A stretch of DNA of 64,000 nt from Vicinamibacteria bacterium (GCA_963806705.1 CAWDZE010000014.1:93054-157053), one strand, 5' to 3'. Positions 16,965 to 54,583 are shown, counted from the first letter of the stretch. Made by a program: numbers and translations. Notes: generated from the letters alone by a model not told the origin.

Positions 16965-17649
16965 TGGCGTAGGAGGTCGGATCGACGACGCCGGCCGCCA
17001 CGAAGGCATCGCGCCGTTCCCTGCACTTGCTGCACGCGCCGCAGTGCAGGAACGGCGCACGTGAACCTGAAGAACCCCGCTCAATCGGATTCATGCACGA
17101 CAGCGTGAGCTCGAAGGGCACGCCCAGTTCGACACCGCGCTGAATCACCTGCTCCTTGTGCAGGTCGCGATAGGGCGCGGCGATTTCCACCGACCAATCC
17201 AACCCCAACGACACGGCTTCGGCCATCGCGGCAAAAAACTCCGGCCGCGCATCGGGAAACGGGTTGCCCGACAGCGGCCCCAGCACGACGCGTGTCACGC
17301 GGTGCTGGGCGCACCACGTACCGGCTTTGGCGAGCAGCACGAGATTTCTGCCCGTCAGGTAGACGTCTTCGTCAGGCGTGTCGTAGGCCGGCGGCGTACC
17401 GCGAATGGCCCAGTGAGTCTGCGGGTACACATCACGCATCGTGAAGTGCAGCCGCTGCAGGCCACCGACGCGCCCGTCGTATGCCGGTGCTGAAAGAAGC
17501 CGTTCGGCCATCGCGACTTCGGCGGTTTCCCAGGCCAGACCGACGCTGACGTAGAGCGGATGCACACGCCCGCGCCTTGCCTCGTCGGCCGCCAGCACGG
17601 CGCTATCCAGCCCCGCCGAGAACAGCACAGCCGTTGCCTGTTCCGCCAT
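16945..17649 (-). CDS. queC: 7-cyano-7-deazaguanine synthase QueC
   Basis: MAEQATAVLFSAGLDSAVLA (SGGxDS-type loop), ...SCMNP...HCGACSKCRERRDAF (Zn Cys cluster). The track ORF extends to 18111, but that N-terminal part is antisense to queD. Confidence 0.88.
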   Translation of the reverse strand: MAEQATAVLFSAGLDSAVLAADEARRGRVHPLYVSVGLAWETAEVAMAERLLSAPAYDGRVGGLQRLHFTMRDVYPQTHWAIRGTPPAYDTPDEDVYLTGRNLVLLAKAGTWCAQHRVTRVVLGPLSGNPFPDARPEFFAAMAEAVSLGLDWSVEIAAPYRDLHKEQVIQRGVELGVPFELTLSCMNPIERGSSGSRAPFLHCGACSKCRERRDAFVAAGVVDPTSYATTSSRS

Positions 17650-29526: not shown

Positions 29527-29584
29527 GTCAATCGTAGCCGTCAATCGTACGTAATCGTCAATCGTCAGTCTGCAATCGTCAATG
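29527..29584. repeat. GTCAATC heptamer array filling the divergent intergenic spacer
   Basis: GTCAATC at 29527, 29540 and 29557, then GTCAGTC, TGCAATC, GTCAATG. The last unit contains ATG 29582. Confidence 0.75.
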
Positions 29585-29839
29585 ATCAGAGTTCTCCTGT
29601 ATACCGGCACCGGTTGACGCGCCTGCGACCTGGTGAAGGAGTTTCTTTCACGAGCAGAGGTGCCGTTTGTCGTGCGGGACGTCGATGAAGACGATGGGGC
29701 GTACGACGAGTTGTTGAGCCGGGGCTGGCGTGCGGTGCCGGTCACCGTCATCGGCGATCGCGCCATCAGGGGCTTCGACCCGGTGGCGCTTCGCGACGCG
29801 CTGCAGGCCGAGCGCGAGAACGGAAAGGAAGAATCCTGA
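29582..29839 (+). CDS. glutaredoxin/NrdH-like redoxin with in-frame TGA (29615-29617) at the first Cys of CxxC; candidate selenoprotein
   Basis: MIRVLLYTGTG-TGA-RACDLVKEFLSRAEVPFVVRDVDEDDGAYDELLSRGWRAVPVTVIGDRAIRGFDP... is all one frame. The track shows only the tail, 29633..29839. Confidence 0.6.
29630..29657 (+). promoter_or_regulatory. SECIS-like stem-loop downstream of the TGA
   Basis: Stem GUGAAGG (29633-39) / CUUUCAC (29645-51), loop AGUUU. The lower stem CUG/CAG is separated by a 3-nt bulge. The loop G-U lies 24-25 nt after the UGA. Confidence 0.45.
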
Positions 29840-41088: not shown

Positions 41089-42141
41089 TCAGGCACTCCG
41101 AATCAACAGCCACAGGAAGAACGGCCCCCCGATGAGCGCCGTGACGATGCCGACCGGCAACTCGATGGGCGCAATCACGGTGCGCGACACCAGGTCGCAG
41201 GCCACGAGAAACGCCGCGCCGAAGCCGAGCGAGGCGGGGACCACGAGCCGGTGATCGGCGCCGACGAGCAGCCGCACCAGGTGCGGGACGACGATGCCGA
41301 CAAAGCCGATGGGCCCTCCGATGGACACCGCGGCGCCCGTGGCAAGCGACGCGCTGAAAAACGCGAGGCGCTGCACCCGCAGCACGTCCACGCCCCGGCT
41401 GGCAGCGTGGTCGTCGCCAAGCGCCAGCACGTTCAGTGCCCGCGGCAACCACAGGAAAATGCCGCACGCCACAACCAGCATCGGCAGCGCCGCGATCAGT
41501 GGCTCGTAGCTGGCGACGTCCAAATCACCCAGCAGCCACCGCAACGTCTGCATCGCGCGCGTCATGTCGGCGAAGTACTGCACCAGCAGAATCAGCGCGG
41601 AGAGCAACGAGTTGAGCGTCACCCCGGCCAGAAGCAGCACCGTCGTCGAAAAGCCCCGATGACGGGCCGCCGCGAGCAGGTACACGACCACGACCGCGCC
41701 AACGGCGCCCAGGAAGCTGGCCAGCGGGACCGTGGCCCACGCCGCGGCCGCCAGCGCGCCGCCGAATGTCAGCACGAGCATCGCGCCGAGCGCGGCGCCG
41801 GCAGAGATGCCCAGCGTGAAGGGCGTCGCCAGCGGATTGCGGAGCAACGCTTGAAAGACGACACCTGCCGAAGCCAGCGCGCCGCCGACCAGCGCCGCCG
41901 CCAGCACGCGGGGCAGTCGCGCGATGAAGAAGACCTGGGCGTCGACGTTGGTGGCCCAGGGCTGCGACCAGTCGAAGGCGCGCGTGAGGCTGATCGAGGT
42001 GCTGCCGAGGAGCGGCGCAAGCACGCACGACGCGATCGCCACGGCGAACGCGCCGATGGACACCGCGACCACGCGGGCGCGAACGGAACGGATGGGGACG
42101 GGGTGGGCTGGTTGCAAACCAGCCCCTGCGCCGGTGGTCAT
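41089..42141 (-). CDS. FecCD/BtuC-family ABC permease
   Basis: About 350 aa, polytopic. ...GISAGAALGAMLV..., ...GPIGFVGIVVPHLVRLLVGADHR... ATGA overlap with the ATPase gene stop. Confidence 0.85.
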   Translation of the reverse strand: MTTGAGAGLQPAHPVPIRSVRARVVAVSIGAFAVAIASCVLAPLLGSTSISLTRAFDWSQPWATNVDAQVFFIARLPRVLAAALVGGALASAGVVFQALLRNPLATPFTLGISAGAALGAMLVLTFGGALAAAAWATVPLASFLGAVGAVVVVYLLAAARHRGFSTTVLLLAGVTLNSLLSALILLVQYFADMTRAMQTLRWLLGDLDVASYEPLIAALPMLVVACGIFLWLPRALNVLALGDDHAASRGVDVLRVQRLAFFSASLATGAAVSIGGPIGFVGIVVPHLVRLLVGADHRLVVPASLGFGAAFLVACDLVSRTVIAPIELPVGIVTALIGGPFFLWLLIRSA

Positions 42142-42944
42142 GGCCGACCCCTGCGCACCGGCACCACCACGAGATGGCCGGCTGCGTCGTGGAACCGCAC
42201 GTCGGCGTGGATGCCGTACAGCTGCGCGACGGCGTCGGGTGTCAGGACGTCGGAGGTGGCGCCGGCCGCCACGATCTCGCCGTCGCGCAGCAGCACGAGC
42301 GTTTCGCACACCGAGGCCGCCAGGTTGAGGTCGTGTGTCGACAGCACCAGGCCGATTCCGCGTTGCCGATGCAGCGCCCGGAGCAGCTCCGCGATCTCCA
42401 GCTGGTAGCCGGGATCGAGCGACGCCGTCGGCTCATCGAGCAAGAGCAGCCCGGCTTGCTGTGCCAGGGCCGACGCGATGACCACGCGCTGCTGCTCGCC
42501 GCCGCTCAGCGTCGAGAACAGCCGCGTCGCAAACGCGTCGGTGCCCGTCGCCGCCAAAGCCTCGTGCGCGATGGCGAGGTCGGCATGGCTTTCCACCTCG
42601 AACGCGCCCAGGTGCGGGTAACGGCCCATGAGCGCCAGTTCGAGCACGGTGTAGTCGAATGCCGGATGGGTGTTCTGCGGGACCATCGCGATCCGCCGGG
42701 CCACCGCGCGCCGCGGCATCTGCGAAAGCGCAGTGCCGTCGAGCGTCACCGATCCGCTGGTTGGCGCAAGCACGCCCGCGAGCAGCTTGAGCAGCGTGGT
42801 CTTTCCGGAACCATTTGGCCCGATGACACCGAGGCGGGCGCCTGAGGCGACGTCGAGCGAGACATCGCGAACCACGGGACGGCCCGGAGGCGACCAGGCC
42901 CGTGGCGCGTAGGCAAACGAGAGGTTACGGGCGGAGATCAACAC
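42138..42944 (-). CDS. ABC transporter ATP-binding protein (BtuD/FecE-like)
   Basis: GVIGPNGSGKTTLLKLLAG, LSGGEQQRVVIASAL, LLLLDEPTASLD. Confidence 0.9.
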   Translation of the reverse strand: MLISARNLSFAYAPRAWSPPGRPVVRDVSLDVASGARLGVIGPNGSGKTTLLKLLAGVLAPTSGSVTLDGTALSQMPRRAVARRIAMVPQNTHPAFDYTVLELALMGRYPHLGAFEVESHADLAIAHEALAATGTDAFATRLFSTLSGGEQQRVVIASALAQQAGLLLLDEPTASLDPGYQLEIAELLRALHRQRGIGLVLSTHDLNLAASVCETLVLLRDGEIVAAGATSDVLTPDAVAQLYGIHADVRFHDAAGHLVVVPVRRGRP

Positions 42945-45166
42945 GGAGGCCGACCATGCCCAGGCGGCCCGGTGCCGGGTAGCCGAAGGCTTCCTCGGTA
43001 CTGGCGATCGAGAAGGTTCAAGCCGCGGCCGAAGATCTCCACGTGTGGCGTGACGCGCCAGCTGGCGCCGGCATCGACCAACGTGAAGCCCGCGGCGGTG
43101 AACAGACCCCCGAAGGCGCCGAAGGACGGCTCGATGTCGAGCACCTCACCCCGGGCGCGAACCGTCGTGAAGGCGGAAAACGCCGATCGGGTCCATCCCA
43201 GGTCGACGGCACCCTGGTTGCGGGGACGGCGAATCAGCGGATCGCCCACCGTGAAGGGCGGCGGCGCGACGCCGGATTGGTCCACCGCGAGAATCTCCGT
43301 CGACATCCATGTGTAGGCGAGCCGCGCATGCACGCCGTGAGGTCCGCGCCAGACGCTTTCGAGCTCGAGCCCGCGCGCGCGCGCGTTGGAGATGTTGTCG
43401 GTGCGGTAGCGGCTGGCACCCGCAATCGAGGCGCCGACGGCGACGATCAGATCGTCGTATCGATTGAAGAAGGCCGTGGCCTCCACTGTCAGCTGAGGCA
43501 GCAGGACGTGGCTGACGCCGACGTCGGCGCTGCGGCTGCGTTCAGGTTCCAGGCTCGGGTTGTCGGTGAACGCGAGCTCGAAAGCGTCGGGCGGCCGGAT
43601 GCCAGTGCCAAAGCTGGCACGCACGGTTGTGCGCGCCACACCGCCGCCGTCCTGCCACGCGACCAGGCGTCCAGCCAGTCGCGGGTTCACCGAGGTCACC
43701 GACTCGTCGTCAAACGCCGGTCGCGGAGCGAAGTCGTTCGGGTCGCCCTCGAGCGCGTTGCGGCGGATGGCGTCGGCGCGCAGCCCGGCGCTGAAGCTGG
43801 CACGCGCGCCCAGATCCTGGCGGACCTCCGCGAAGCCGCCAAAGTTGCTGCGCTCGATCGGCACTTCCTGAAACCGCTCGCCGGTGATGTACGTGCTGCG
43901 CGCGCGCTCGCCCTGGCCTTCGACGCCTGCGGTGAGGCCCGTCGTCGGTGTCAGCACGACGTCGGTCTGCGTGCGGAACGTGACGCGGCGGGTCTCGAAG
44001 AACGAGTCGCCGAAGCCGCTGTGATACCGGTTGTCCAGATCGGCCACCGTGACCTGCCAGCGCTGCTGAACGCGGCCCGCGAGCAGCGATCCCCACGGCA
44101 GACGTCCGTGCACGCCAAGCTGCCGCTGCGTGTCTTCGCCGCGCGACACGCGATCGACCGCCGTGTAGGCGCCGATCGGGTTGCTGCCGTAGGGCCCGGG
44201 ATTGCCGCGCTCGGCGTCGATCCACCGGAAGTCCGCGCGCACTGCCGTCATCGCGCTCCTGGTCCACTCGAGGTGCCCCTGTGCCAGCGACTGCTCCCAG
44301 GCGTCGTTTGACACTGTCTCGCCGGTGGCTGGGGCGATGCCCGTGAAGCCGTCGCTCTGGTTCCGCTCGCCGCTGGCGCCAAACGACCACGTCCCGACAG
44401 TGCCGCGAGTCGCGCCGATCGCGCGCAGCGTCGCCTCTCCGCCGCCTTCGATCTGCCCCGAGACCGTCGGCCGGCCGCCCTGCTTCGTGGTCAGGTGCAC
44501 GACGCCGCCGATCGCGTCGGCGCCGAAGACCGCGCTTTGCGGGCCGCGGACGATCTCGACCTGGTCGACATCGCCGAGCGGCAGCAGGCTGAAGTCGAAG
44601 CCGCCGCCGAAGCTGTTGACGCGAATGCCGTCGACCATCACCAGCGTGTAGTCCGATTCGCCGCCGCGCGGGAAGACCGAGGTCAGCGCGCCACGGCCGC
44701 CGTTGCGGCCAACGGCAAAGCCGGGCGTCGTCCGCAGGGCGTCCGCGACGTTTTCCAGTTGCCGTCCCTCGAGCTCGTCGGAGGCCACCACCGTGGTCGA
44801 CGCGGGCGACTCAGAGCGGGGAAGTGGCACGGGAGCCGCGGAGACGACCACCGCTTCGGAGTATGGCGCGACGTGCAGCTGCAGTTCGAGCGGCGCCGTG
44901 CCGGCACCCGTGCGGACGGTCCGCGCCGGCGCGGCAAACCCGGGCGATTCGACCAGCACGCGGTAGCTCGCGTCGGCCAGGTCGACCACGGTGAATCGGC
45001 CCTCGGCATCGGTGGTCGTCGTGCGCACGCCCATGGGGCCATCGATCAGGACTGTAGCGCCGGGGACGGGCCGCCCGGACGGGTCGAGGACACGGCCGCT
45101 CAGCGATCCGGCATCAGCAGGCGGAGCAAGAGCAAGAACGAGGGCAAGGAAAATGGGCAGAGCCAT
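42925..45166 (-). pseudogene. TonB-dependent receptor with N-terminal CarboxypepD_reg domain (BtuB-like role); 1-nt insertion at GTAC 42998-43001 as assembled
   Basis: Signal MALPIFLALVLALAPPADA. SGRVLDPSGRPVPGATVLI. Plug ...DVDQVEIVRGPQSAVFGADAIGGVVHL. Dropping G 42997 restores ...NLLDRQYEEAFGYPAPGRLGMVGLRVDLRP ending at 42925. Confidence 0.85.
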
Positions 45167-45194
45167 CTTCACTCCTTTCGGCGTGCGATCGCGC

Positions 45195-45395
45195 CGAGGG
45201 AACGTGACGGCCCAGCGAACCAGGTCTCCTGACTTGCGGATCGTCGCGCAGCGCCCGCGCCTTCCCATGCCGTGCGGCACAGTGGCGGACCCCTGGGGTC
45301 GAGTAAAGGCGTGCGCTCCCCGTTTACAGTGGCGGCACCGTGTGGGTCTTCCACCCATCTTCGCTCAGTGCGCCGGGCAAGCGTCGGTTGTAACC
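45195..45395 (-). promoter_or_regulatory. cobalamin (B12) riboswitch
   Basis: The minus strand reads ...GGTGGAAGACCCACACGGTGCCGCCACTGTAA...CCGCCACTGTGCCGCACGGCATGGGAAGGC...GCAAGTCAGGAGACCTGG (B12 box, forward 45220-45237). It lies in the 5' leader of the TonB receptor. TATACT (reverse complement of 45400-45405) is a possible -10. Confidence 0.8.
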
Positions 45396-49393: not shown

Positions 49394-49425
49394 ACACGCC
49401 TCCTGTAGGTGCGCGCGGCGCGCCC

Positions 49426-49908
49426 CTACAGGAGATCCAACGCTCGCTCGATCTCATCTGGTCCCGGAAATTCCTCCTGCGTCTCTCCCACGAAGACCGC
49501 TCGGATGACTCCGGTCCTGTCGATCACGAATAGCGCCGGTCGCGAGATGTTCCACGCGTCCAGCCCCAGCCGGTGCCACACGCCATAGAGTTTTGTGACC
49601 TCGCGCGACTCGTCCACGAGGATGTTGAAGGGCAGCCCCGTATCCTCGACGTAGCGTCGCACCGCGGCCGAGTTCTGCGCGACCACTGCGACGACAGAAA
49701 CACCGCGCGCGGTGTACTGCGCCGACCGTTCTGCCAGTTCACCGAACCGGCGGCGACAGTTCGGTCACCAGGTGCCGCGATGAAACGCCAGCAGCACCGG
49801 CCCGCTGGCCAGGTACTCCGCCAGCGTGCGCCGGTCGCCCCGATTGGTCGGCAGCGAGAAATCGGGAGCCGTGGCGCCCGGCTTGAGGGTCGTGGAATGT
49901 TTGAGCAT
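49426..49908 (-). CDS. peroxiredoxin-like (PRX_like2/AhpC-TSA) redoxin with in-frame TGA (49765-49767) at the first Cys of W-C-P-x-C; candidate selenoprotein
   Basis: MLKHSTTLKPGATAPDFSLPTNRGDRRTLAEYLASGPVLLAFHRGTW-TGA-PNCRRRFGELAERSAQYTARGVSVVAVVAQNS...LFVIDRTGVIR... is all one frame. The track splits it into 49765..50193 and 49426..49686. Confidence 0.6.
49734..49750 (-). promoter_or_regulatory. SECIS-like stem-loop downstream of the TGA
   Basis: RNA CCGGUUC-GGU-GAACUGG: 7 bp, one G.U, triloop GGU with G-U 23-24 nt after the UGA. An alternative hairpin CCGAAC...GUUCGG lies at 49742-49764. Confidence 0.4.
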
Positions 49909-51120
49909 CAGAACAACGTCACTTCTACCACCGTTTCTGCGCCCACCCTCTCGACGTCCGCCGGAATCTCGAAGTAGCCGTCGGCGTGCGCCAGGCTCGT
50001 GATCTCGCCCGACCCCTTGAAGACGGGGATCGCCGCGGCGCCCTCGAGGCGGACGGGATAGATCTGATGCCGGCCGGCCGCCGACTCCACCTCGCTCGCC
50101 AGCCTCGCCAGCACGACGCGCTTGGGCGCCGGTGGCAGGTGCGCCATGCGGCGGAGGACCGGCGCCACCAGCAGGTAGGCGTTGGTGAGGCACGACACGG
50201 GATTGCCCGGCATGCCGAATACCGGCCGGCCCGCGACCGTCGCAAACACGGTGGGCTTGCCGGGCTTGAGCCGCAGCCCCTCGAAGTGCACGATGCCGGC
50301 CGCCGCGATGATCTCCAGCAGGAAGTCGCGGTCGCCCACCGACGTGCCGCCTGAAAACAGCACCATGTCCTCGCTCAGGCAGCGTGTGAACGCCTGCGTC
50401 AACGCCTCGCGGTCATCGCCCACTCGCGGAGCAACCACCGGCTCGCCGCCGTGCAGTCGAATCGCGGCCGCAAGCGCAGCCGTGTTGGAGTCGAAGATCT
50501 GCGCGGGTCCCAGCGAACCGCCCGGCGCGACGATCTCGTCGCCGGTCGAGAGAATCGCCACCGTGGGTCGCTGGTAGACGTCCACCGCGTCGAGCCCGAG
50601 CGCGGCGACGACGCCAAGCCGGGCAGGCGACAGCATCGTGCCCTCGGCGACGGCGATCTCGCCGGCCACCAGAATCGCTTCCGGCGCGTCCGACGTGCTG
50701 TCGCGGCGCCACGGGCTTCAACACAAGCACTGAGGGTCCCTCGGATGCCGAGTGCTCGACCATGACGACGGCGTCGGCGCCCTGAGGCAGGGGGGCGCCG
50801 GTTGCGATGCCCGCGCAGGTTCCCGCGACCACAGGCGTCGTGGGCGCGCGGCCCGTGTAGATCGTCTCGACCAGACGAAGCCGCACTGGCTGCTCGCGAC
50901 TGGCGCCGGCCGTGTCGGCGGCGCGCACCGCGTAACCGTCCATCATCGACCGCGCGAATGGCGGCACGTCGCGGCTGGAAACCAGGTCTCGCGCCAGAAC
51001 TCGCTGGTCTGCTGATTCGATCGCCACGCGCTCGACGCGCATCACCGGCTCGCCGTGGACGCTGAGCATCGCGCGCGCTTCTTCGACGGTGGCGAGTTGG
51101 CGGTCGGGGCGATAGGGCAT
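49908..51120 (-). pseudogene. moeA: molybdopterin molybdenumtransferase MoeA; GATC read as GAATC at 50672-50676 as assembled
   Basis: ...PPFARSMMDGYAVRA...GAPLPQGADAVVMVE...HVGRAGSD|LVAGEIAVAEG after dropping A 50673 ...LSTGDEIV...FSGGTSVGDRDF...PGNPVS... Confidence 0.85.
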
Positions 51121-51623
51121 CAGCGGCGAGCCTCGCGCACGAGGTGCCCCAGTTCCGGCAGCACGAGTTCCTCGAGGGCCAGCCTCACCGCGTGCTGCGA
51201 GCCCGGCAGGACGATGACGACCACCTGACCCACCAGTCCAGCCGTCGCTCGCGACAGCATCGCTGCGGCGCCTATCTGCTGGTAGCTGAGCGACCGGAAC
51301 AGCTCGCCGAAACCGGGAAGGCGCCTGGTGAGCAATCCGTCCACGGCTTCAAACGTGCTGTCACGAGCGGTGATGCCCGTGCCGCCCGTCGTGATGACGA
51401 CATCGACGAGCGCGCCGGACGCCAGATGTTGGACCGCCGCTCGGACCTCGTCGGCCTCGTCGCCGAGCAGCGTGCGGCCCGCCACCCGGTGCCCGGCGGC
51501 CTCGAGCAGTTCGACGATGGCCCGCCCGCTCGAATCCGTCTCGAGCGTGCGCGTGTCGCTGACCGTGATGACATGCACGGACACCGAGGCCGGAGCCTGC
51601 TGCCGATGCTCGGTGACGGACAT
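51120..51623 (-). CDS. moaB: MoaB/MogA-family molybdenum cofactor biosynthesis protein
   Basis: VHVITVSDTR...VVITTGGTGITARD...LPGSQHAV; 167 aa. 1-nt stop/start overlap with moeA. Confidence 0.85.
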   Translation of the reverse strand: MSVTEHRQQAPASVSVHVITVSDTRTLETDSSGRAIVELLEAAGHRVAGRTLLGDEADEVRAAVQHLASGALVDVVITTGGTGITARDSTFEAVDGLLTRRLPGFGELFRSLSYQQIGAAAMLSRATAGLVGQVVVIVLPGSQHAVRLALEELVLPELGHLVREARR

Positions 51624-51680
51624 CCGATCGATTGTAAGGTGCTTCTGGTTCTCCCCGAACGACCGGGAAAAACGTCGAGC

Positions 51681-53339
51681 CTATGGCGTCTGGACGGCCG
51701 GTTCAGGCATCCGTTCGAGCCCGACGAGCTTCCAGCCGCTGGCGAGTTTCCTGAAGTAGGCCTGGATCGGTTTCGCCCATGACGGCTGATCGGCGCTGGC
51801 GGCGTGAATGTCAACCCTGATGAACGTCCCCTGGATGAGGGGCAGTTCCGGCGGTGCCTGCATCTTCAACTCGCGGCTCGCCGTTTCGGCGAACCGTCGC
51901 GACGCGCCGGTGGCGTTGTCGAACACGTGCCACACGGCCGTGTACGACTCTGGCGCTGCCGCCAGGCCGAACTGGACCGCGGCATTGCCGAACGTCAACG
52001 TGCCCGTGCCATCCAGCGCCGGATCGACGATCGGGTTGATGCCGGCCAGATACGTGCGGCCTATCTTGTCACGGCGCTTGATCAGCACGTCGCCGAGATA
52101 CTGCTCGGCGGCCGGATCGCCGAACTCACCGGTCTTGACGACCGCCCGTATCATGTCGTCGCTGAAAGCCATCACCCGCCGCGCGGCCCAGAACGCATCG
52201 TCGGCCCGCATTTCCAGGTACGCGGCCGTCGGCGTGTGGGGCTTCCATGTCGTGGGATCGAACGTGTCGCCTTCGAAGCGCCCGATCGCGGGGTACTCGG
52301 TGTAATCCGCCTTCTGCCACGGGCTCAGGGCAAAGCCGAACGTGAACAGCCGCCGGCGCGTCGCACCGCCCTCGTAGAAGTACTCGTAGCCTTCGTCCCA
52401 GTCGTGCGGGCCGTTGGCGCCGATGCCGAAGGTCGAGCCGACGTCCTGCAGATAGTGCCTGACGATGCCTCGGCCGTTTTCGGTCACGAGCGCATCGAGC
52501 GTGTTGCCTGCCTTCATGTCCGTCAGATTCGTCCACGCGCCGAACACGCGCAACGCGCGAAGCTCGCGCCGATGCTCGTGCGGGACGATGTCGTTGGGGT
52601 CGTCCGGACGTGTGCCCTCATAGCGGAAGCCGCCGAGGATCTTGCCCGGCAGCAGACGCGCCGCGGCGGCGCGATACGTGCCGTCCGGGTTCCGTGCCGC
52701 GCGTTCGAGGACCTCGTCCAGATCGCGACGGGTGAGGGGCGTGCGTTCACCCGAGGGCCGCCGGGTGGTGGCCGCCGGGTCGATTTCGACGTGCCTTGGG
52801 TCGACCGTGGTGAGGAACGTCTCCACCTGGTTGTAGCCCAGTGCCCAGAAGATCCGGTTGGCGATCGCCAGCGCGCCGGTGGCGCCCTCGGGGTTCGATG
52901 GCGGATCGAACGAGAGGAACCAGGTCTCGCCGTTGGCGCTTCGCGCGGTGAACCCGGGAGCAAAACCCGATGACTTCTCCCGGATGACCGTCCAGCGCTC
53001 TGCGGCAGGCGGCGGGCCCAGGTTGGTGCCGCGCAGCAGTTCCTCGACCGACAACTTCTGTGCGCCGATGCGGTTGGTGAACCAGCTGGAGTCCGGCACT
53101 TCGTCGATGGTGTTGATGTTGCCGGCGCGGGTGTTCGACGGCTTGCGCTTGGAGGTTGCAAACAGCTGGTACGACAGGTCGTACAGCAGGCCGATATCCC
53201 ACGGCGCCACGCCGGAAGCGTCCCTGGGATCGGGCTCGCGGCTGATGGGGTCGTCGTCGTAGAACCGCGGCGACTGCGTGCCGACGGCGGCGACCGCCAG
53301 GGCGCAGACCAGGGCGCCAATGGCCGACGACAAGCGCAT
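51681..53339 (-). CDS. secreted hypothetical protein with a possible protein-kinase-like core
   Basis: Signal MRLSSAIGALVCALAVAAVG. NINTIDEVPDSSWFTNR. ...AWTNLTDMKAGNTLD... (D-x-K-x-x-N) followed by ..YLQDVGSTFG (D-x-G). Confidence 0.5.
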   Translation of the reverse strand: MRLSSAIGALVCALAVAAVGTQSPRFYDDDPISREPDPRDASGVAPWDIGLLYDLSYQLFATSKRKPSNTRAGNINTIDEVPDSSWFTNRIGAQKLSVEELLRGTNLGPPPAAERWTVIREKSSGFAPGFTARSANGETWFLSFDPPSNPEGATGALAIANRIFWALGYNQVETFLTTVDPRHVEIDPAATTRRPSGERTPLTRRDLDEVLERAARNPDGTYRAAAARLLPGKILGGFRYEGTRPDDPNDIVPHEHRRELRALRVFGAWTNLTDMKAGNTLDALVTENGRGIVRHYLQDVGSTFGIGANGPHDWDEGYEYFYEGGATRRRLFTFGFALSPWQKADYTEYPAIGRFEGDTFDPTTWKPHTPTAAYLEMRADDAFWAARRVMAFSDDMIRAVVKTGEFGDPAAEQYLGDVLIKRRDKIGRTYLAGINPIVDPALDGTGTLTFGNAAVQFGLAAAPESYTAVWHVFDNATGASRRFAETASRELKMQAPPELPLIQGTFIRVDIHAASADQPSWAKPIQAYFRKLASGWKLVGLERMPEPAVQTP

Positions 53340-53350
53340 GGTCGCGCGCG

Positions 53351-54583
53351 TCAAAACGAGGCCTTTGACGAGAACACCACCACGAGCCCTTCGTTGCTCT
53401 TGGCGAACTCGATTCGCAGGGGTGTGGAAATCGGGCCATGCAGCCGGAAGCCCAGGCCGTAATCCTTCTTCATATCGTGGAAGTCGTTGAGGTCGCTGGC
53501 GCGGGCGGTGACCTTGCCGCCGTCGACAAACAGCGCCATGTCGAGGAACCTGTTGGCCAGCACGCGCCATTCCGCCTGCCACATCACGCTGTTGCGATCG
53601 CGGAACCGCCAGCTCGCGAACCCGCGCATCGACGATCCGCCGCCAAGGGCGGGCAGCATGAAGAACGGAACCACTTCGTCATCGCCGATATGGGTGGTCT
53701 CGACGCGCGCGCGCAACGAGAGCACCCAGGCATCGCGGAGCACCGGGATATGGTGGATCGCCTCGTACTCCATCTTCGTGAAGCTGTACGTGTCGTCGGT
53801 GTCGACGAACCGGTGCGCGGTGACGCCGTAGAACCCGCCTCGCCGTGCGTAGTCCGGGGCGATGCGCGAGTCGACCCCGGCGGTGCCCTGCACGTGGACG
53901 TAGGTCGGCGAGGCGCCAAGGCCTGGAAGCGTCTCGGGCGTGTAGACCTCGTCAACCGAAGGTGCGGACCCGCCGCCGCCTTCCTGCGTCCACTCGGAGA
54001 GCTCCAGTCCACCCCGCAGCAGGAACAGGCGCCGCGTCGGCCAGAAGTCGAGCGTGCCCGAGGCGTACGGCTGCGTGAACGAGTAGTTGGCGCGGGCCTC
54101 GTCCGAGGTGGGTCCCGTGCCGATCCCGTAGAAACCCACCGAAGTGGCCTCGCGCCACCCGCCGATAACCGACAACACGCCGCGCCTGTCGAACAGGCGC
54201 GGCGCCAGGAACTCGGCCTCGATTCGCTTGTACCCCGAGAAGGTGATGCTGCCCCGCACATCGATGGTGTTGTAGGAACTGACAAAGCGCCTGTAGCCCG
54301 CGCCGAGCGTGAAGCCGCCGCCGGCGTAGGCGCTCTCGAAGAACGGGTGCCAGTGCAGCCCCCCGCTGGTGAGGATGTCTTCGGCTTTGTCGATGGCGGC
54401 CTCGACCTTATTGGGTTCGTACGGCTTGACCACGGCTGACTTCTCGGCTTTGGCCTGCTCGATTGCCGCCGTACGGCTCGTGGTCGCCAGGTCCTGCGCC
54501 GCCAGCCGAGGCGTCAGGACCGCAGGGGCCAGGCACACCGCCACCGCGAGTGTGCGATGGCGGCATGAACTCAGGATACGCAT
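53351..54583 (-). CDS. Omp85/bacterial-surface-antigen-type beta-barrel without obvious POTRA repeats
   Basis: Signal MRILSS..AVCLAPAVL. ...LPALGGGSSMRGFASWRFRDRN...DYGLGFRL...PLRIEFA...VVVFSSKASF (C-terminal F). Confidence 0.65.
   Translation of the reverse strand: MRILSSCRHRTLAVAVCLAPAVLTPRLAAQDLATTSRTAAIEQAKAEKSAVVKPYEPNKVEAAIDKAEDILTSGGLHWHPFFESAYAGGGFTLGAGYRRFVSSYNTIDVRGSITFSGYKRIEAEFLAPRLFDRRGVLSVIGGWREATSVGFYGIGTGPTSDEARANYSFTQPYASGTLDFWPTRRLFLLRGGLELSEWTQEGGGGSAPSVDEVYTPETLPGLGASPTYVHVQGTAGVDSRIAPDYARRGGFYGVTAHRFVDTDDTYSFTKMEYEAIHHIPVLRDAWVLSLRARVETTHIGDDEVVPFFMLPALGGGSSMRGFASWRFRDRNSVMWQAEWRVLANRFLDMALFVDGGKVTARASDLNDFHDMKKDYGLGFRLHGPISTPLRIEFAKSNEGLVVVFSSKASF

Follow-up and report, generated by a model that had tools for sequence, protein, structure and literature searches.

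Peroxiredoxin-like (Prx-like) selenoproteins, which contain the PF00578 domain and a UxxC or UxxU motif (U being selenocysteine, Sec), were predicted with high confidence by Kryukov and Gladyshev in 2004, and the prototype is WP_010940744.1 of Geobacter sulfurreducens (PMC13188914, PMC1794560). In the published model of the bacterial Sec insertion sequence (bSECIS; SECIS without the prefix below), the loop has 3-9 nt, the stem 4-16 bp, the UGA-loop distance is 16-37 nt and the minimum free energy (MFE) is -7.5 kcal/mol or lower, with a G within the first two loop positions, usually followed by G or U (PMC13188914). Acidobacteria were counted among the Sec-using phyla by Zhang et al. in 2006 (PMC1794560). 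Here we analyze a stretch of 64,000 nt from Vicinamibacteria bacterium (GCA_963806705.1, CAWDZE010000014.1:93054-157053), hereafter called the window, in which two open reading frames (ORFs) are found on the minus strand between positions 49426 and 49908. Judged from sequence and its conservation, these two ORFs are very probably halves of one intact gene of the AhpC/TSA type, called prx below, with a conserved Sec codon and its own recoding hairpin.

A first-pass annotation of the window had proposed a minus-strand frame that starts at an ATG at 49908, meets a TGA at 49767-49765 and continues to 49426. Our translation reproduced this frame exactly, with the ATG at 49908-49906, 47 sense codons, the TGA, 112 sense codons and a TAG at 49428-49426. 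The TGA is the single one in frame within the ORF; it sits at the first Cys of a W-C-P-x-C motif, in the context FHRGTW-[TGA]-PNCRRRFGELAE. The features of the gene are as follows.

49426-49908, minus strand: predicted prx-like selenoprotein gene (AhpC/TSA fold) of 160 codons including one Sec codon, supported by frame, Pfam, homologues and selection.
49765-49767, minus strand: UGA, predicted Sec codon U48, first residue of U-P-N-C; TGA in 66 of 80 loci, Cys48 invariant in the Cys forms.
49756-49758, minus strand: TGT, Cys51, putative partner (resolving) Cys of UxxC; invariant, and placed by alignment to 2cx3 and ResA.

With U48 replaced by Cys, the joined product matched Pfam AhpC-TSA (PF00578; E 4.7e-30, 104.5 bits for a cut-off of 26) over residues 11-137, so that the domain spans both "halves". 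A match to Pfam Redoxin (E 1.5e-25) also spanned both.

A protein search gave 531 homologues at E <= 1e-10; among the 120 matches listed, these were single proteins of 149-170 residues, 62-73% identical. In an alignment of 24 homologues, H-R-G-T-W-C-P-x-C was invariant and the window's TGA aligned with the first Cys, as had been proposed from the window alone. Because gene callers truncate Sec forms, we chose a DNA-level scan, with one genome per species, and took the best 80 loci, nearly all of them labelled Vicinamibacteria, Vicinamibacterales or Acidobacteriota. The codon at the Sec position was TGA in 66 of them, TGC in 9 and TGT in 5, which settles for this set whether orthologous loci have TGC or TGA, a point raised in the first-pass annotation; the 66:14 ratio of TGA to Cys codons is a biased estimate of frequency, as the search patterns were chosen and the loci were the best 80. 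The TGA-form loci encode proteins 56-96% identical to that of the window, and the contigs that bear them come from many projects, both short-read (k141_, k127_, NODE_, RIFCSP) and long-read. The presence of TGA in 66 species genomes, in assemblies of both types, removes nonsense mutation and miscalling as explanations, and it is this comparison with relatives, not the window alone, that excludes chance. The part of prx that follows the TGA is under purifying selection: when the window was compared with seven TGA-form relatives, the ratio of nonsynonymous to synonymous changes (pN/pS) was 0.12-0.43 over the 99 codons after the TGA, comparable to that of the N-terminal part (0.23-0.47).

The candidate recoding element lies directly downstream of the TGA and was resolved into a core and a possible extension.

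49733-49751, minus strand: SECIS core, an 8-bp stem GCCGGUUC/GAACUGGC with a GGU triloop, supported by pairing, MFE, rare codons and the bSECIS constraints.
49719-49768, minus strand: extended hairpin, with a lower helix, below the SECIS core, around the UGA (fold of the window mRNA, MFE -24 kcal/mol, z = -1.7).

The stem-loop CCGGUUC-GGU-GAACUGG at 49750-49734, put forward in the first-pass annotation as the recoding element, was thus confirmed and lengthened by one further G-C pair to 49751-49733; it is itself the element that is conserved and agrees with the bSECIS model. The stem starts 14 nt and the loop (49743-49741) 21 nt after the UGA, and the loop G-U falls 23-24 nt after the A of the UGA. 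Compared with the published constraints, the hairpin agrees with all four (GGU loop, 8 bp, 21 nt, -11.8 kcal/mol). The lower helix of the extended form requires GAACGGUCGG, which was found in only some of the relatives, and it is therefore not a family feature.

Among the 80 loci, nt 17-35 (counted from the U of the UGA) correspond to GCCGGUUC-GGU-GAACUGGC and are almost invariant, but only in the TGA forms. Standard pairs were present in 97.3% of the cells in this register, compared with 11-49% when the 3' arm was slid by 1-3 nt. All eight stem pairs were formed in 54 of the 66 TGA forms, while the Cys forms mostly had 4-5, and the local MFE amounted to -11.9 ± 0.9 kcal/mol in the former and to -6.3 ± 2.5 kcal/mol in the latter (Mann-Whitney p = 7e-9). 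The hairpin was degraded in every TGC or TGT form with the exception of L009, which retains a stem at the same register, its loop being GCC instead of GGU.

This conservation lies on synonymous sites and runs against the codon bias of the genome. The Gly codon in the hairpin was GGT in 58 of the 66 TGA forms, while GGT represents 8% of the Gly codons in the long ORFs of the window. Similarly, the Glu codon was GAA in 50 of 59 TGA forms (27% of the Glu codons in the window) and the next Ala codon was GCA in 40 of 66 (7% of the Ala codons in the window). At the same three sites the Cys forms have GCC or AGC, GAG and GCG, and the flanking codons vary freely. A clade of seven TGA forms (L036, L049, L059, L063, L066, L067 and L078) shows three coordinated changes, CGU, GGC and GAC, that weaken the GGU stem and create a 7-bp hairpin, GUCGCCG-GUU-CGGCGAC, 4 nt nearer to the UGA (nt 14-30). 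Its GUU loop is that of the SECIS of a second gene in the window, the glutaredoxin-like (Grx-like) gene described below.

The first-pass annotation had named the finding of Sec machinery as a check, and selA and selB are indeed present in related genomes with the TGA form. We used the pyridoxal phosphate motif of SelA, written in GC-rich codons, as a DNA pattern and matched several Vicinamibacteria contigs, from which we obtained proteins that were nearly full length and 43-48% identical to E. coli SelA. With one Vicinamibacteria selA as the query, 80 selA loci (L203-L282) were recovered from Acidobacteriota. By isolate names, selA occurs in at least eight metagenome-assembled genomes (MAGs) with a TGA-form prx (L038, L056, L050, L043, L060, L048, L042 and L006); in L038, both genes are on one 3.36-Mb contig (CBDAOD010000003.1). 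It was also found in two MAGs with a Cys-form prx (L029 and L003). A pattern for SelB, derived from its motif RG[IML][TS]I[DE][LI]G[FY]A, led to a selB gene on contig CAVOWJ010000002.1 of MAG MFD00032.bin.3.97, the MAG of the TGA-form locus L067. The product has the domains GTP_EFTU, GTP_EFTU_D2, Beta-barrel_SelB and SelB-wing_2 and is fragmented by indels. A full-length selB, whose product aligns without interruption to residues 1-605 of SelB from E. coli, was present in the Illumina assembly of Vicinamibacterales L379. We know of no role of selA or selB other than Sec insertion. No selB, selD or tRNA-Sec was found within 10 kb of the 80 Vicinamibacteria/Acidobacteriota selA loci, nor selD or tRNA-Sec in the Acidobacteriota selB loci; compared with the selAB operon of E. 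coli, selA of this lineage stands alone.

Several observations weigh against the reading of prx as a selenoprotein gene. The window itself contains no selA, selB, selD or tRNA-Sec, as assessed with ARAGORN, which found no tRNA, and with tblastn using E. coli SelA, SelB and SelD; the same tblastn queries gave no match in the 80 prx loci, indicating that the Sec machinery is not linked to prx. Furthermore, none of the fetched Vicinamibacteria loci, including the surroundings of selA and selB, contained a recognized selD or tRNA-Sec, though no dedicated search for them was made. As to the hairpin, no stem pair has changed on both sides, so that its support consists of conservation and of three one-sided changes that keep the pair (G.U to A-U in 10 sequences, U-A to U.G in 8, C-G to U.G in 1), not of compensatory covariation; the stem is too conserved to covary. 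No Rfam family corresponds to it: at permissive thresholds, 49650-49850 matched RNAI only, by chance (E 0.31), and a scan of the whole window at gathering thresholds returned the cobalamin riboswitch only. For bacterial SECIS elements, Rfam offers no model of use here. RNAalifold, applied to the 66 TGA forms, preferred a weak alternative (-2.9 kcal/mol) that overlaps a competing hairpin. Finally, the assembly of the window contains at least one indel error, in moeA, and its base-level accuracy is thus imperfect.

The RNAalifold alternative was rejected, since its pairs rely on invariant coding bases and since, in the full competitor, one partner of the G6-C24 pair is a wobble base that varies freely. 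G6 is the wobble base of a Pro codon (G 38, C 22, A 5 and T 1 of 66). Since it is a G in only 38 of 66 sequences and there is no compensation, the competing hairpin is not under selection. The pairing CCGAAC/GUUCGG at 49764-49742, to which the first-pass annotation had drawn attention, therefore exists in the window and is not maintained among the relatives.

If the UGA were decoded as something other than Sec, either by near-cognate read-through with Trp or Cys or through a lineage-wide reassignment of UGA, the hairpin could act as a stimulator of read-through, and one would expect the fetched loci to yield neither selD nor tRNA-Sec, as was the case. We consider this very unlikely. TGA is the commonest ordinary stop in the window, where it ends 21 of the 41 long coding-like ORFs, and the genetic code is therefore not reassigned; the UGA stands in place of the redox-active Cys, at a site where no residue but Cys or Sec would function; and the TGA-form genomes have selA and selB as well as a hairpin that fits the bSECIS model.

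Still less probable is a pseudogene, which would have arisen by a chance nonsense mutation of TGC or TGT to TGA in an ordinary Cys redoxin. One substitution suffices for this, and the disruption of the neighbouring moeA in the window indicates that decay or errors do occur. However, the same TGA is present in the 66 separate species genomes, whose proteins diverge too much (56-96% identity) to represent one contaminant, the coding sequence after the TGA is under purifying selection, and the hairpin of the TGA forms is kept by rare codons.

A long-read sequencing or assembly error at a true TGC or TGT codon, which had been feared because of the nearby CCAGG and GGTCACC motifs, has a negligible probability. 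The window and its closest relatives, L076 and L455, do show single-base indels typical of long-read assemblies, but the errors observed are indels, not substitutions. Moreover, the TGA also occurs in Illumina MAGs assembled with MEGAHIT or SPAdes (SMAG k141_, NODE_, RIFCSPLOWO2), which excludes a motif-linked miscall, and the SECIS accompanies the TGA and, L009 aside, is degraded wherever the codon is TGC or TGT. The separate listing of the two halves in the mechanical ORF list would suit a 47-residue leader peptide followed by an independent C-terminal protein from an internal GTG at 49686, but we give this practically no credit, as the AhpC/TSA domain covers both halves, as the Cys homologues, including the full-length Cys versions among the orthologues, are single ORFs for proteins of 150-170 residues, and as a protein starting at 49686 would lack beta-strands one to three as well as the active site. 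In no orthologue do the halves form two genes of their own.

The second gene mentioned above behaves in the same way as prx.

29582-29839, plus strand: Grx-like gene (Pfam Glutaredoxin, E 6.5e-14), with a TGA at 29615-29617 in G-U-R-A-C.
29633-29651, plus strand: Grx-like hairpin, 8-bp stem with a GUU triloop (loop 29641-29643).

The codon is TGA in 55 of 56 metagenomic relatives recognized by the motif. The 55 relatives and the window gene gave 56 TGA sequences, 41 of them distinct, for an analysis of the stem. All eight pairs (nt 19-26 with 30-37) were formed in 35 of the 41 distinct sequences and the GUU triloop was present in 40; one sequence had a double-sided change from A-U to C-G. Rare codons (UUU, CUU and UCA) hold this hairpin too. 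The Grx-like gene is accordingly predicted to be a conserved selenoprotein gene as well, and the SECIS elements of the two genes are built alike: each has a stem of 8 bp and a G(G/U)U triloop starting 21-23 nt beyond the UGA, as would be expected if a single SelB recognized both. The spacing of the loop G-U, previously described as the same in both genes, is similar without being identical (24-25 nt in the Grx-like gene, 23-24 nt in prx), while the earlier argument that two redoxins with a stop on the redox Cys in one window are not due to chance holds. A scan for further in-frame TGA candidates was noisy at 67% GC, and the best extra one (17491-17493) was non-coding sequence upstream of a QueD-like gene.

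To place the prx product, we compared it with proteins of known structure. In the PDB, the sequences that matched it best were those of Aeropyrum BCP (2cx3; E 1e-14) and B. subtilis ResA (E 3e-13). The CxxC region of ResA can be aligned with G-T-W-U-P-N-C at every residue, U48 taking the place of the N-terminal Cys. In the alignment of FHRGTWUPNC with FFPAAFSPVC of 2cx3, C51 corresponds to the peroxidatic Cys, U48 to the Thr/Ser site and His43 to the Pro. Thus, of the peroxidatic P-x-x-x-T/S-x-x-C signature of BCP/PrxQ, the window protein retains the Cys only. The closest Cys homologue, P0001, was modelled with AlphaFold (pLDDT, the per-residue confidence score, 81.8; pTM, the predicted template modeling score, 0.82). 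The model had the redox motif between strand 38-43 and helix 49-67, i.e. in the loop before helix alpha1, and its best Foldseek neighbours were BCP/AhpE peroxiredoxins and ResA/DsbE (TM 0.72-0.88). By inspection, the N-terminus (MLKHSTTLKPGATAPDF) comprises about 10 residues at the start before a first strand that begins at about residue 18; it contains no hydrophobic segment and no signal peptide or membrane anchor of the ResA/TlpA/DsbE type. None of the NCBIfam redoxin and selenoprotein models (ResA, SelL-related, PrxU, WAxxUGC) reached its cut-off: ResA scored best, with 67 bits for a required 170, followed by SelL_rel_redox (54.5 and 120) and PrxU NF040737 (32.7 and 270).

This homology suggests that the prx product is a thiol:disulfide oxidoreductase of the cytoplasm in which Sec would act as nucleophile and C51 would resolve the intermediate; that it works as a canonical peroxidase is doubtful. 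The PF00578 domain and a UxxC at a thioredoxin-fold active site suggest that it is a member of the long-known Prx-like UxxC selenoproteins, a loosely defined family in which it is placed by domain and motif. In the mechanism that we propose, the UGA at 49767-49765 would be recoded as Sec during translation: a complex of SelB, GTP and Sec-tRNASec would bind the 8-bp GGU-triloop hairpin and deliver Sec, competing with release factor 2. The attacking nucleophile of the protein would be the selenolate of U48, located at the N-terminal end of helix alpha1, and C51 would resolve the intermediate via a selenenylsulfide, to be re-reduced later by a thioredoxin- or glutaredoxin-type system.

Exchange between Sec and Cys has been described by Zhang et al. 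in 2006 (PMC1794560), and the present family likely offers several instances of it. In a neighbour-joining tree of the proteins, which is rough because the protein is short, Cys forms appeared in at least four places among the Sec forms, namely L009, L003 (in the clade of the window itself), the pair L015/L018 and a ten-member clade. This tree points to repeated Sec/Cys switches within one orthologous family, and with the decay of the hairpin in most of the Cys forms they would constitute a natural example of such exchange. In passing, L018 (JBDTXA010000013.1), which is labelled Rhodanobacter sp., is the same as Acidobacteriota L015 across 78 nt around the active-site codon, with a tree distance of essentially zero, and the two have sodA-nadA neighbours in common; the Rhodanobacter label looks like a binning error.

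The neighbourhood of prx comprises two genes of molybdenum cofactor (Moco) synthesis and, on the other side, a convergent sodA.

49908-51120, minus strand: moeA (MoeA_N, MoCF_biosynth, MoeA_C); its stop overlaps the prx start, and it is frameshifted by an extra T at 50673/50674.
51120-51623, minus strand: moaB-type MoCF_biosynth gene (Pfam E 6e-33), the first of the moaB-moeA-prx array.
49400-49434, no strand assigned: GC-rich inverted repeat over the prx stop, between the convergent prx and sodA, with 17-nt arms that are 94% complementary.

The stop TGA of moeA (49910-49908) and the prx ATG have one A in common, in a TGATG overlap. In about 70 of the best 80 loci, moaB and moeA were directly upstream on the same strand, with Sec and Cys forms alike, and in many of the 80 sodA, often followed by nadA, was convergent downstream. 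The inverted repeat is conserved in L001 and is not followed by a T-run; it is a predicted terminator hairpin, which may be bidirectional. The earlier description of prx as the end of a moaB-moeA operon was correct for the overlap and is reinforced by the conserved synteny, but moeA is not intact in the window. From the overlap of start and stop, prx, the last cistron of moaB-moeA-prx, is probably translationally coupled to moeA, with which we infer that it is co-transcribed.

In the window, moeA is split in two frames, the sequence being GCGATTCTGG where L076 (96.6% identical) and L001 (85%) have GCGA-TCTGG, without the extra T at 50673/50674; the moeA ORF of L001 is intact. In L455 (98.9% identical) the local sequence differs, yet moeA is called intact, with 397 aa. 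Other indels, some of them within prx, are found in L076 and L455 themselves. By this comparison, the frameshift probably is an indel of long-read assembly rather than the mark of a pseudogene, and as an indel error it has no bearing on the TGA. In L455 (ENA ERZ25039531 contig_1783), homology to the window ends in the middle of prx (L455 12017, window 49604, about codon 101) and unrelated genes follow, owing to a strain rearrangement or insertion, or else to a misassembly. In L076, the 665-aa ORF upstream of moaB is separated from that gene by an additional segment of about 1 kb (202-1250), which is not in the window (51659-51674) and encodes a small protein fragmented by indels. In the window, the long ORF directly upstream of moaB, at 51681-53678 on the minus strand (about 633-665 aa), is coding-like and has no Pfam match.

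Because prx is the coupled last gene of moaB-moeA-prx across the class, in Sec and Cys forms, one could suppose that the redoxin is a dedicated accessory of Moco biosynthesis and not a general antioxidant. It could then keep the molybdopterin dithiolene, or a thiol of MoeA or MoaB, reduced during Mo insertion, and the convergent sodA would be in keeping with a Moco module protected against oxidative stress. We regard this role as rather unlikely, and know of no Sec- or Cys-redoxin with a Moco-accessory function.

Elsewhere in the window, the cobalamin riboswitch (RF00174, 65.7 bits) lies at 45202-45387 on the minus strand and precedes genes at 41092-45199, on the same strand, for a TonB-dependent receptor, an ABC ATPase and a FecCD permease, i.e. 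a B12-uptake operon of the btuB/btuCD type. Frameshifts were suspected in the overlapping frames at 41-45 kb, but these turned out to be the three separate genes.

For annotation, the main consequence is that gene callers split or truncate the TGA-form prx, in at least 66 genomes, so that at least two Sec-redoxins would be going unreported in Vicinamibacteria, a widespread soil lineage. The lineage-specific SECIS signature (a stem of 7-8 bp and a G(G/U)U triloop, with the loop 21-23 nt after the UGA) could serve to mine Acidobacteriota for selenoproteins. The understanding of Sec decoding itself is unchanged by these results.

How, then, does the locus compare with known systems? The SECIS of E. 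coli fdhF has a GGUC tetraloop with a bulged U. The window hairpin differs from it by a GGU triloop on a perfect 8-bp stem, shares no sequence similarity with it and has its G-U one codon further from the UGA (G23-U24 in fdhF). Like the SECIS of fdhF and fdnG and the bSECIS consensus (PMC13188914), it is situated directly 3' of the UGA within the ORF and has a small loop with a G followed by G or U; its spacing is inside the range of 16-37 nt and its MFE below -7.5 kcal/mol.

With regard to the protein, ResA, TlpA and DsbE (1st9, 3c71, 4nmu) have the same type of active site, G-T-W-C-P-x-C, in which the N-terminal Cys of CxxC is the nucleophile, and gave Foldseek TM-scores of 0.72-0.87, but they are membrane-anchored and extracytoplasmic, whereas the window protein has no anchor and has a C-terminal extension of the Prx/BCP type. 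BCP/PrxQ and AhpE (2cx3, 5epf, 3hjp, 4x0x) provide the best overall matches in sequence and structure (TM-scores up to 0.86), with C51 at the site of their peroxidatic Cys; compared with BCP/PrxQ, the P-x-x-x-T-x-x-C motif is lost, with His43 in place of Pro and Sec at the Thr/Ser site. PrxU of Eubacterium acidaminophilum (TxxU; NF040737) is likewise a selenoprotein of the AhpC/TSA superfamily, but its Sec is the peroxidatic residue, while the predicted Sec of the window protein is three residues upstream of that site. The motif of the window protein, with His and Sec at the Pro and Thr/Ser sites of BCP/PrxQ, presumably agrees with the CDD description of PRX_like2 (cd02970). To our knowledge, no fixed partnership with moaB-moeA has been described for the Prx-like UxxC family. 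It is this family that the prx product fits, as a small, putatively cytoplasmic protein with an AhpC/TSA domain, Sec as the first residue of UxxC, Cys homologues and a SECIS in the coding region just downstream; the prototypes come from Deltaproteobacteria and Clostridia, whereas prx belongs to soil Vicinamibacteria (Acidobacteriota).

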